NCBI GenBank assembly: GCA_964016885.1
Contig: OZ024749.1
Location: 25,916,001-25,980,000 of the forward strand
DNA: 64,000 nt
From: Eledone cirrhosa
Lineage: Eukaryota
Direction: 5' to 3'
Below the pieces are notes generated by a model. The model saw nothing but the letters and a program-made list of their open reading frames with translations, did no database searches and had not been told where the DNA came from. Within the stretch, counting starts at the first letter, position 1, and each line of letters opens with the position of its first letter. Below are positions 21,167-24,443 of the stretch, piece after piece. The translations under genes and the position numbers were made by a program.

Positions 21167-21323
21167 TGAGAAATGAAATTTCGTTTTCATTTTGTTTCAA
21201 TTTATCGTTTTCGGTATGCCTGACCGATTTAACTCACTCAAAAGGCAAATTAGGCTGCTCAGCCGTTAATTTTCATAAGGAAAGTATATACTTTCGAACG
21301 TTCAACTATCTGGCAGATGGGTA

Positions 21324-21368
21324 AACGGTGCTGATGATAGCTAACAAGCTTGAAACTAGTACATCGTT
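21324..21368 (+). ncRNA. Minimal type-I hammerhead ribozyme (subtype A; second copy 21810-21854)
   Basis: aacggtg-CTGATGA-tagct.aaca.agctt-GAAA-ctag-TA-catcgtt. Confidence 0.85.
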
Positions 21369-22394
21369 CCTGTGTCAGTGTTGAACAAAACGGTGACGTG
21401 GTTGCCTTAACACCGTGTGGCATAAATTCAGGCTGTTCAGTTTGTTTACAAACGAACAAAGCGACGTTATAATAAGCGCCGCTAAACTGATACGTGCATA
21501 TATGTATGTGTACCTGTATGCATATGTATATATATATGTATATATATATGTATATATATATATATATATGTGCATGCTACTGTACGTCTGTATACATATA
21601 TGTATGTACGTATACATGCATACTTACATTTAAGTAAGTGCCATACTAAGAGTGAGAAATGAAATTTCGTTTTCATTTTGTTTCAGTTTATCGTTTTCGG
21701 TATGCCTGACCGATTTAACTCACTCAATATGCAAATTAGGCTGCTCAGCCGTTAATTTTCATAAGGAAAGTATATACTTTCGAACGTTCAACTATCTGGC
21801 AGATGGGTAAACGGTGCTGATGATAGCTAACAAGCTTGAAACTAGTACATCGTTCCTGTGTCAGTGTTGAACAAAAAGGTGATGTGGTTGCCTTAACACC
21901 ATATGGCATAAATTCAGGCTGTTCAGTTTGTAACAGACAAACCGGTAACAACAACGAAACTAGTTCAATATTCCTTGTCTGGCTTTCTGGAGAATAGAGG
22001 AAAGGTGTTTCCTCGAAAACCAGTATGACTCTAAAAACCGGTTTGTCTGTGTGTTTACATACAGAATAGCTGGGTTACTCACAGTAAAGTAACCAGTGAA
22101 AGACTTGTTACATCTACATATGTATACGTGTGTGTATTCATATGCACACTAGTATTTCAGTATGCATATGTAGATGTACATTTTTAACTTAATTGTTTAA
22201 GCGTCAGTCATACAAAAGTGAGTTACAAACGAAACGAAATTTAATTTCGTTTCGTTATTCGTTTTTATCGTCTCCGCTGAACCGGTGCGTACTCACACTC
22301 TATGCAAGTTAGTCTGCCCACTACTAATTTTCATAGAAAAAGCATATAACGATATGTGCTTTTACAATTCTCCAGAGAAGCCGGAAGATGGGTA

Positions 22395-22439
22395 AATATT
22401 GCTGATGAGATGTAATAACATCGAAACTAGTCCAATATT
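22395..22439 (+). ncRNA. Minimal type-I hammerhead ribozyme (subtype B; copies 22864-22908 and 23333-23377)
   Basis: aatattg-CTGATGA-gatgt.aata.acatc-GAAA-ctag-TC-caatatt: perfect helices I and II, palindromic helix III, GUC site. Confidence 0.92.
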
Positions 22440-24443
22440 CCTGCCTGGCCCTCTGGAGAATAGAGGAAATGTGTTTCCTTGAAAACTCGTATGACTCTAA
22501 AACCAAGTCCGCCTGTGTGGTTACATACAGACTAGCTGACACTCACTGTAAAGTGTCTAGTGAAAAGCTGAGTACATGTACATATGTATACATGTGTGTA
22601 TTTATATGCATACTAATACTTCCGTATACATATATAGATGTACACTTTAACTTAATTGTTTAAGCGTCAGTCATACAAAAGTGAGTTAGAAGCGAAACGA
22701 AATTTAATTTCGTTTCGTTATTTGTTTTTATCGTTTCCGCTGAACCGGTGCGTACAATGACTCACGTTCTATGCAAATTAGTCTACCCACTACTAATTTT
22801 CATAGAAAAAGCATATAACGATATGTGCTTTTACAATTCTCCAGAGAAGCCGGAAGATGGGTAAATATTGCTGATGAGATGTAATAACATCGAAACTAGT
22901 CCAATATTCCTGTCTGGCCCTCTGGAGAATAGAGGAAATGTGTTTCCTTGAAAACTCGTATGACTCTAAAACCCGGTCCGCCTGTGTGGTTACATACAGA
23001 CTAGCTGACACTCACTGTAAAGTGTCTAGTGAAAAGCTGAGTACATGTACATATGTATACATGTGTGTATTTATATGCATACTAATACTTCCGTATACAT
23101 ATGTAGATGTACACTTTAACTTAATTCTTTAAGCGTCAGTCATACAAAAGTGAGTTAGAAGCGAAACGAAATTTAATTTCGTTTCGTTATTTGTTTTTAT
23201 CGTTTCCGCTGAACCGGTGCGTACAATGACTCACGTTCTATGCAAATTAGTCTACCCACTACTAATTTTCATAGAAAAAGCATATAACGATATGTGCTTT
23301 TACAATTCTCCAGAGAAGCCGGAAGATGGGTAAATATTGCTGATGAGATGTAATAACATCGAAACTAGTCCAATATTCCTGTCTGGCCCTGTGGAGAATA
23401 GAGGAAATGTGTTTCCTTGTAAACTCGTATGACTCTAAAACCCGGTCCGCCTGTGTGGTTACATACAGACTAGCTGACACTCACTGTAAAGTGTCTAGTG
23501 AAAAGCTGAGTACATGTACATATGTATACATGTGTGTATTTATATGCATACTAATACTTCCGTATACATATGTAGATGTACACTTTAACTTAATTGTTTA
23601 AGCGTCAGTCATACAAAAGTGAGTTAGAAGCGAAACGAAATTTAATTTCGTTTCGTTATTTGTTTTTATCGTTTCCGCTGAACCGGTGCGTACAATGACT
23701 CACGTTCTATGCAAATTAGTCTACCCACTACTAATTTTCATAGAAAAAGCATATAACGATATGTGCTTTTACAATTCTCCAGAGAAGCCGGAAGATGGAA
23801 CTAGTCCAATATTCCTGTCTGGCCCTCTGGAGAATAGAGGAAATGTGTTTCCTTGAAAACTCGTATGACTCTAAAACCCGGTCCGCCTGTGTGGTTACAT
23901 ACAGACTAGCTGACACTCACTGTAAAGTGTCTAGTGAAAAGCTGAGTACATGTACATATGTATACATGTGTGTATTTATATGCATACTAATACTTCCGTA
24001 TACATATGTAGATGTACACTTTAACTTAATTGTTTAAGCGTCAGTCATACAAAAGTGAGTTAGAAGCGAAACGAAATTTAATTTCGTTTCGTTATTTGTT
24101 TTTATATATATATATATATATATATAATATATATATATATATATATATATATAATATATATATATATATATATATATATATATATATATATATATATATA
24201 TATATATATATATATATAATGTATTTATATATATATATTTATATATATAATGTATTTATATATATATATTTATATATATATGTATTTATATATATATATT
24301 TATATATATATGTATATATATATATATATATTTATATATATATGTATATATATGTAAAGTTATATTTAAAATTGTTGGGTTACAACTAGTAAATATTTAT
24401 AACTGATATAAAAGCACTCGACAAATATTTGGAGTATATTTAC

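Follow-up and report, generated by a model that had tools for sequence, protein, structure and literature searches.

The window analysed here is a stretch of 64,000 nucleotides (G000:C9:25916001-25980000) from a (TA)n-rich animal genome of 3.0 Gb. An array of hammerhead ribozyme repeats lies on its plus strand next to an assembly gap of 200 N (20967..21166), which hides the 5′ end of the array. The sequence-only reading had described this array as a composite of 486-bp and 469-bp units; the hammerhead repeats are real, but three families rather than two contribute to it, namely A (486 bp), B′ (467 bp) and B (469 bp). The family A array (21167..21931) opens at the gap edge with a partial unit from unit position 292, continues with a complete 486-bp unit (21362-21847) and breaks off, at a non-standard place, 84 bp into a third unit (unit position 84). 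Next comes a junction insert on the minus strand (21932..21946), i.e., a 14-nt inverted copy of 22037-22050 of B′ plus one base, which shares GT with the B′ start. The B′ segment (21945..22316) is 5′-truncated inside helix II, so that its first hammerhead is incomplete, and leads into a 49-bp stretch (22317..22365) in which B′ and B are identical and inside which the array switches from B′ to B in register. The family B array (22366..24105) carries a 33-bp deletion (23798..23799) that takes out the helix I 5′ strand, the core and helix II of the fourth B hammerhead, and it stops inside a (TA)n target tract (24104..25483) at unit position 299, the long one of two fixed 3′ ends. Its last ~70 nt (24032..24105), the "tail", extend from the short fixed 3′ end (unit 225-231) to the long one (unit 299) and include an AT-rich hairpin; we infer that this tail is the region in which reverse transcription starts.

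Several other repeats share the window. Family E, a high-copy family with a hammerhead-like core, is present on both sides of the array (20839-20966 and ~24355-24715), and the right copy, inside the (TA)n tract, is two-armed. The left piece (20840-20966) was considered as a Neptune end that would form the other arm of the array, which was rejected because the sequence belongs to family E and continues into the gap. Family C, an older and decayed relative of A, is represented on the plus strand at about 34950..35385 by a solo unit with tail whose core is at 34988. Family D forms an array of 312-bp units at 41578-43897 (helix III palindrome ACGCGT, GUA site) with two arms head to head that end at unit positions 141 and 172, a 31-nt tail, and units that are 99-100% alike. 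A broken LINE-like element with ORF1-like and endonuclease-like frames (814-3625, minus strand) and minisatellites of 21/63-bp, 29/58-bp and 85-bp (44595-46220) are also found.

The composite array contains five intact type I hammerhead cores, at 21331 and 21817 in A and at 22402, 22871 and 23340 in B. The first A hammerhead (21324..21368) has a helix I of 6-7 bp, a U-U at the helix II base, a palindromic helix III and a predicted cut after 21361 (GUA), and the second (21810..21854) is predicted to be cut after 21847. The B hammerhead at 22395..22439 has a G-C at the helix II base and a predicted cut after 22432 (GUC), with further copies at 22864-22908 and 23333-23377, all on the plus strand; B′ is distinguished by helix II GTTGT/ACAAC and a GUU site. 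The helix I and helix II letters given for two subtypes by the sequence-only reading, together with ACTAGT, were found in all five intact cores, its cut positions 21361 and 22432 agree with the predicted sites, and folding showed that its extended stems pair in both subtypes. The third variant that it listed does have a core at 34988 with CAATC/GATTG, but this is the decayed family C copy, with mutations in helix II and helix III pairs, one helix III pair being broken, and in the GU of the cut triplet, which reads CUU.

The exact core pattern matches 23,700 times in the genome as compared with 4 times for the reversed pattern used as a control, showing that the cores are beyond chance, and the whole-unit folds give z = − 11.3 (B) and − 9.3 (A). 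CUGANGA, GAAA, the A15.1-U16.1 pair, an NUH triplet and an open-ended helix I are all present, the family C copy of the window being the exception, and the dimensions (helix I of 6 bp, helix II of 4 bp, helix III of 1-2 bp with a palindromic loop) fall within those set for type I in the available text of PMC4209133. Helix III is the palindrome ACTAGT in A and B and ACATGT in C. The G10.1-C11.1 pair is present in B and B′ and is replaced by U-U in most A and by A-A in C; the axolotl HHR_Amex2 likewise has U-U at the helix II base (PMC7229834, as far as its accessible portion goes). No Rfam match at gathering score was obtained in the sequence. The B cores match Hammerhead_HH9 below threshold (32 bits, E 2e-5, cut-off 52), the A cores have no listed match, and miRNA-like Rfam matches at the E-value level were rejected as TA hairpins.

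The sequence-only reading had also claimed selection on RNA structure, and this is borne out by a covariation score above shuffled and slid controls and by fewer broken pairs. For covariation, 17 stretches were picked by hand to cover A, older A, C and five B-type subfamilies; these represent about four lineages, too few for a result of R-scape grade. In this set, 96.9% of the cells pair, two-sided changes occur in 10 of the 19 named pairs, and RNAalifold recovers the same helices. The covariation score of 0.506 over these 17 stretches and roughly four lineages compares with 0.220 for shuffled data (reached in none of 500 shuffles) and a maximum of 0.106 for slid partners, while the number of pairs with a two-sided change in the same 17 stretches is not above the shuffles (83/500). 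Between A and B, both sides differ in 3/6 helix I pairs and 2/4 helix II pairs with zero broken, and the helix II base changes from U-U to G-C. The substitutions from B to B′ disrupt 7 pairs of the whole-unit fold versus 18.6 expected (0/5000), and those of the five B-type subfamilies disrupt 6-8 pairs of the B fold versus 12-20 expected (p 0.018 to <0.0002); two-sided changes over the whole B unit are not in excess (2 vs. 0.89, p = 0.22). These sequence comparisons support the view that the stems of these families are under selection on RNA structure. Covarying hammerhead families inside one genome have already been described (PMC4209133, in its available part), and the covariation stressed by the earlier reading is real, yet expected for this class.

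The class itself is a known one, and the elements are almost certainly non-LTR retrozymes of animals. At least two consecutive units each carry a complete type I hammerhead, an LTR/PBS/PPT layout, judged as a whole, is not apparent, and the copies are dispersed and multicopy, with target duplications of more than 4 bp where present. The array has no ORF of 150 aa and a GC content of 0.31-0.37, and it lacks an RT plus GIY-YIG ORF of its own such as defines an autonomous Penelope-like element (PLE). B′ is a separate young family with near-identical copies elsewhere in the genome and is 89% alike to B, the perfect 49-bp stretch included. Family C is 89-93% alike to its kin and shares homology with A and B all the way from the tail to the ribozyme. 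In runs labelled as two other organisms, looped contigs of 465-467 bp and B′ type are present, together with A pieces; no run recorded as RNA was among those listed as containing the repeats. A search of the literature and open repositories, in which subscription papers mostly lay outside coverage and repeat databases outside scope, returned no description of these families and no retrozyme ends mapped to PLE start sites.

Judged by the available parts of PMC7229834 and bioRxiv 10.64898/2026.07.22.740005, the elements resemble the animal non-LTR retrozymes in that every one of their tandem non-coding units has a canonical type I hammerhead, and also in low GC, strong self-pairing, thousands of copies, at least two ribozyme families per genome and co-existing PLEs. 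The units differ in length, being 466-534 bp here (the range over which family A varies elsewhere in the genome) versus 170-400 nt for the expressed forms, although they lie within the 51-972 bp of the survey in bioRxiv 10.64898/2026.07.22.740005, as given in its accessible portion. Compared by description with newt satellite 2, Schistosoma Sm-alpha and Dolichopoda pDo500 (PMC2837043, PMC6765202, each in part), they share tandem hammerhead repeats in which helix III is short and palindromic and stems I and II carry compensatory changes; in contrast to these three, most copies here are short dispersed arrays with fresh insertion ends.

An octamer, ATGCAAAT, is kept in A, B and C at ~80-92 nt upstream of the core (22771..22778 on the plus strand, also at 21729, 23240 and 23709; altered at 21243 and 22302). 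It is retained in about 98 of the 104 alignable cases in A and in 79/97 in B, and the strand with which it pairs in a hairpin varies while the octamer stays. It is a candidate promoter element by this pattern of conservation. Newt satellite 2 is driven by an octamer-containing promoter of snRNA type.

The insertion ends were mapped at 68 B-clade loci with 118 arms, the window included, which were best matches of window queries and are biased to young copies. Among 116 visible 3′ ends, 106 fall at two sites ~70 nt apart (unit positions 224-231 and 296-299), and a run of TA comes directly after 102 of the 106. Both ends are visible at 46 head-to-head loci, of which 39 combine a long with a short end and seven have one irregular end; long+long or short+short pairs were found at none of the 46. 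By a hand estimate, the odds of random pairing giving 39/39 long+short are near 1e-12. In family A, 35 of 53 ends lie at two sites, 11 are alignment breaks in a TA core and seven are other. Target duplications of ~9-13 bp are readable where the target is not pure TA (L120, L015, L150, L126). The 5′ ends are scattered across the unit and across the ribozyme cut site, and thus the ribozyme cut does not set the insertion ends; an apparent pile at position 1 was an alignment artefact.

Two adjacent fixed 3′ ends, an inverted 5′-truncated arm and AT-rich targets are all present, and the tail, inverted arms and TA bias are described as PLE marks in the available text of PMC8557442. The two-armed Penelope-like elements of the same genome follow the same pattern, with 6/6 ending long+short in (TA)n. 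From the accessible parts of PMC11167929 and PMC8557442, PLEs of Neptune/Nematis type and the anole Poseidon PAc also have two adjacent 3′ ends, an inverted 5′-truncated arm, AT-rich or (TA)n targets, a hammerhead upstream of the start sites and read-through of the ribozyme. The anole element was shown in vitro to nick AT-rich DNA on both strands, and its tail is defined by two adjacent internal RNA start sites with no need for ribozyme cleavage (PMC11167929, in part). The retrozymes differ in having no ORF and a tail of ~60-74 nt versus 30-40 nt, as stated in the same portions of PMC11167929 and PMC8557442, and in a full canonical hammerhead as opposed to the reduced motifs of the autonomous elements of this genome. 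From the arrangement of their ends, the retrozyme copies have very probably spread by PLE-type mobilisation. Such ends were not mapped in the accessible text of PMC7229834 or bioRxiv 10.64898/2026.07.22.740005, which distinguishes the present data.

Young RT+GIY-YIG ORFs of 938 and 1026 aa (L091:3809-6622, L093:1985-5062), whose copies are 96-99% alike, are present in the genome. A sequence reading of these ORFs shows a CX4CXXC motif N-terminal to the nuclease, a feature of the Neptune and Nematis clades according to the part of PMC8557442 available. The PLE family at L091 has a reduced hammerhead-like motif directly upstream of its two 3′ ends. DNA BLAST and nhmmer over 46 GIY-YIG loci, drawn from the best 150 of 10,595 candidates, detected only independent A, B and C insertions and no autonomous PLE with A/B-like terminal sequence, and for this reason we leave the partner enzyme unnamed. 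This differs from Xenopus, in which 24 of 57 families match Repbase TEs, mostly PLEs (bioRxiv 10.64898/2026.07.22.740005, accessible portion), and from the Chlamys non-autonomous PLEs such as MRC1, which are likewise non-coding, multicopy head-to-tail insertions made by PLE machinery, but share 3′ sequence with autonomous partners and lack canonical hammerheads, as far as the available text of PMC8557442 indicates.

How the three families came to be joined is less certain. Template jumping between related RNAs near 21945, as first proposed, is not demonstrated by the A/B′ join: A stops at unit position 84, which is neither the ribozyme cut nor a fixed A end, and the join (21931-21946) is found once in the genome. 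None of the pieces listed from the contigs of four runs bridges it, and the B′/B chimeric stretch has no other perfect match among the best 40 of 1174 candidates. The A/B′ join looks like an ordinary 5′ truncation scar with fold-back. Locus L032 presents a similar fusion, in which an inverted piece connects a young A array (98% to kin) with an older, decayed A copy (94% to the nearest one examined) that is broken at the same hairpin as the A of the window, and this favours insertion into DNA with deletion. Of 18 one-armed copies, 9 have no TA on the 5′ side and 2 lie directly behind the end of another element; family E has also inserted on both sides of the array, which we count for successive insertion. 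With somewhat better than even odds, we prefer successive insertions with deletion to template switching in one event. At this locus, A would have inserted first and B′ would have entered the TA tract behind A, its 5′ end folding back and joining inside A, after which B would have joined B′ by homology. No other A-B fusion was seen in 36 stretches in genome order or in 68 other B-clade stretches, and thus three insertions at one tract need a hot spot.

The alternative of a single reaction, in which the reverse transcriptase began on B RNA, slipped 33 nt at the ribozyme, switched in register to B′, folded back and jumped to A, is unlikely in our judgement but deserves serious weight. It would account for three irregularities within one 2.2-kb array, for the absence of a TA remnant at either join and for the fact that B′ passes into B in register where 49 bases are identical; in long arrays at other places, recurring unit variants form mosaics, and subfamilies share variants in patchwork fashion. 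By their differences to the nearest copy examined (2/331-337 for A, 2/350 for B′, 1-4/469 for B), the three pieces are of equal youth, which is what a single event predicts, although dating was discarded as a discriminator because it does not separate the models. However, A is entered at position 84 rather than at the cut site or a fixed end, of 129 distinct B-clade units just one is clearly and one weakly two-parent, the arms of two-armed insertions seem to be of the same subfamily by identity (judged by eye), and the fusion of the same shape at L032 was made onto a decayed DNA copy. An improbable third possibility is that one or both joins arose later, by deletion between direct repeats, gene conversion or an assembly error. 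The array begins at the 200-N gap, and the 89% likeness of B′ and B with its perfect 49 bp is a substrate for annealing-type deletion; however, the inverted 14-mer is a typical insertion scar, seen likewise at the 5′ ends of L008 and L052, and the right end of the array is a precise long end.

Two further points count for successive insertion. Near A stretches, older A-type copies are enriched (6/38, with 115 kb of flank) as compared with other stretches (2/157, 529 kb; p = 7e-4), an excess that is possibly inflated since the search ranks loci with more A-like words higher. In addition, PLEs are reported to insert into or beside existing copies (PMC6765202, available part), and it is possible that young A arrays home to their relatives. 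The young A arrays at L028, L032, L159, L161, L164 and L170 have older A-type copies at a distance of up to ~1.2 kb. Inspection by eye of the older A-type copy at L161:3048-4305 shows numerous A-to-G changes in each arm, the pattern expected after adenosine editing of a double-stranded RNA template.

The long arrays bear on the nature of the RNA template. A single monomer circle has been proposed as the retrozyme template (PMC7229834, in its accessible part), whereas the long arrays here look as if they were copied from mixed multimers. In one array, 6/28 units examined equal the commonest unit and variants recur irregularly, and in two two-armed insertions the arms share variants in order or in alternation, the order including private variants; uniform arrays are also present. 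Because the long arrays are mosaics of unit variants, we lean towards templates of multimeric RNA (read-through transcripts or circular multimers) and away from a single monomer circle, although such mosaic patterns could also come from later conversion or unequal exchange. Very long arrays, which are possible source loci, occur at G000:C5:87.62-87.69 Mb (B′), G000:C1:5.738-5.752 Mb (B3; at least 31 units) and G000:C2:379.86-379.87 Mb (A). A few arrays of this kind with irregularly recurring variants do exist, as expected if solo terminal repeats had expanded locally into satellites through unequal crossing-over, the hammerhead being a relic, a model raised in the available text of bioRxiv 10.64898/2026.07.22.740005. 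However, this model is very improbable for the present families, as the short dispersed arrays of near-identical units show fresh insertion ends at each arm, private variants recur in order from one arm to the other, so that the tandem form itself inserted, and the stems covary between families. Mobilisation by an APE-type LINE enzyme is the least credible of all, for although LINE-type ORFs occur in the window and at other loci examined and the head-to-head inversions look like the twin priming shown by L1, the retrozyme copies have no poly(A) and no single 3′ end, and their strict long+short pairing at fixed internal sites is the same as in the Penelope-like elements here.

For PLE-type mobilisation, the following sequence of events can be proposed. 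The arrays would be transcribed as multimers, possibly from the octamer-containing region, and the palindromic helix III would let neighbouring ribozymes cut as dimers to yield monomers and circles. A PLE protein would bind the tail hairpin, nick both strands of AT-rich DNA ~10 bp apart, and initiate two cDNAs, one at each of the long and short sites, its reverse transcriptase reading through uncut or ligated ribozyme junctions. Joining of the two cDNA ends to each other would produce two arms, whereas joining of a single cDNA end to the upstream DNA would produce one arm, often with a deletion. The whole explanation, i.e., three retrozyme families, PLE-type copying into (TA)n, and fusion by successive insertion with deletion, has a probability of roughly 0.75 in our estimation. 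A bolder proposal, which we regard as distinctly doubtful, is that a Neptune-type enzyme pair acts on multimeric RNA, starting a cDNA from each of the two sites (long and short), homes near kin, and hops in register between co-expressed retrozyme RNAs. If this were true, ribozyme families would recombine during retrotransposition, and the locus would be a frozen product of three templates.

Which enzyme spreads the animal retrozymes, and whether its template is a monomer circle or an uncut multimer, are questions left open in PMC7229834 and bioRxiv 10.64898/2026.07.22.740005, as far as their available text goes. The near-identical young copies in this genome give exact start sites and a long+short rule in common with intact PLE ORFs. 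This end rule would link retrozymes to Penelope-like enzymes, and it makes the partner enzyme testable in vitro.
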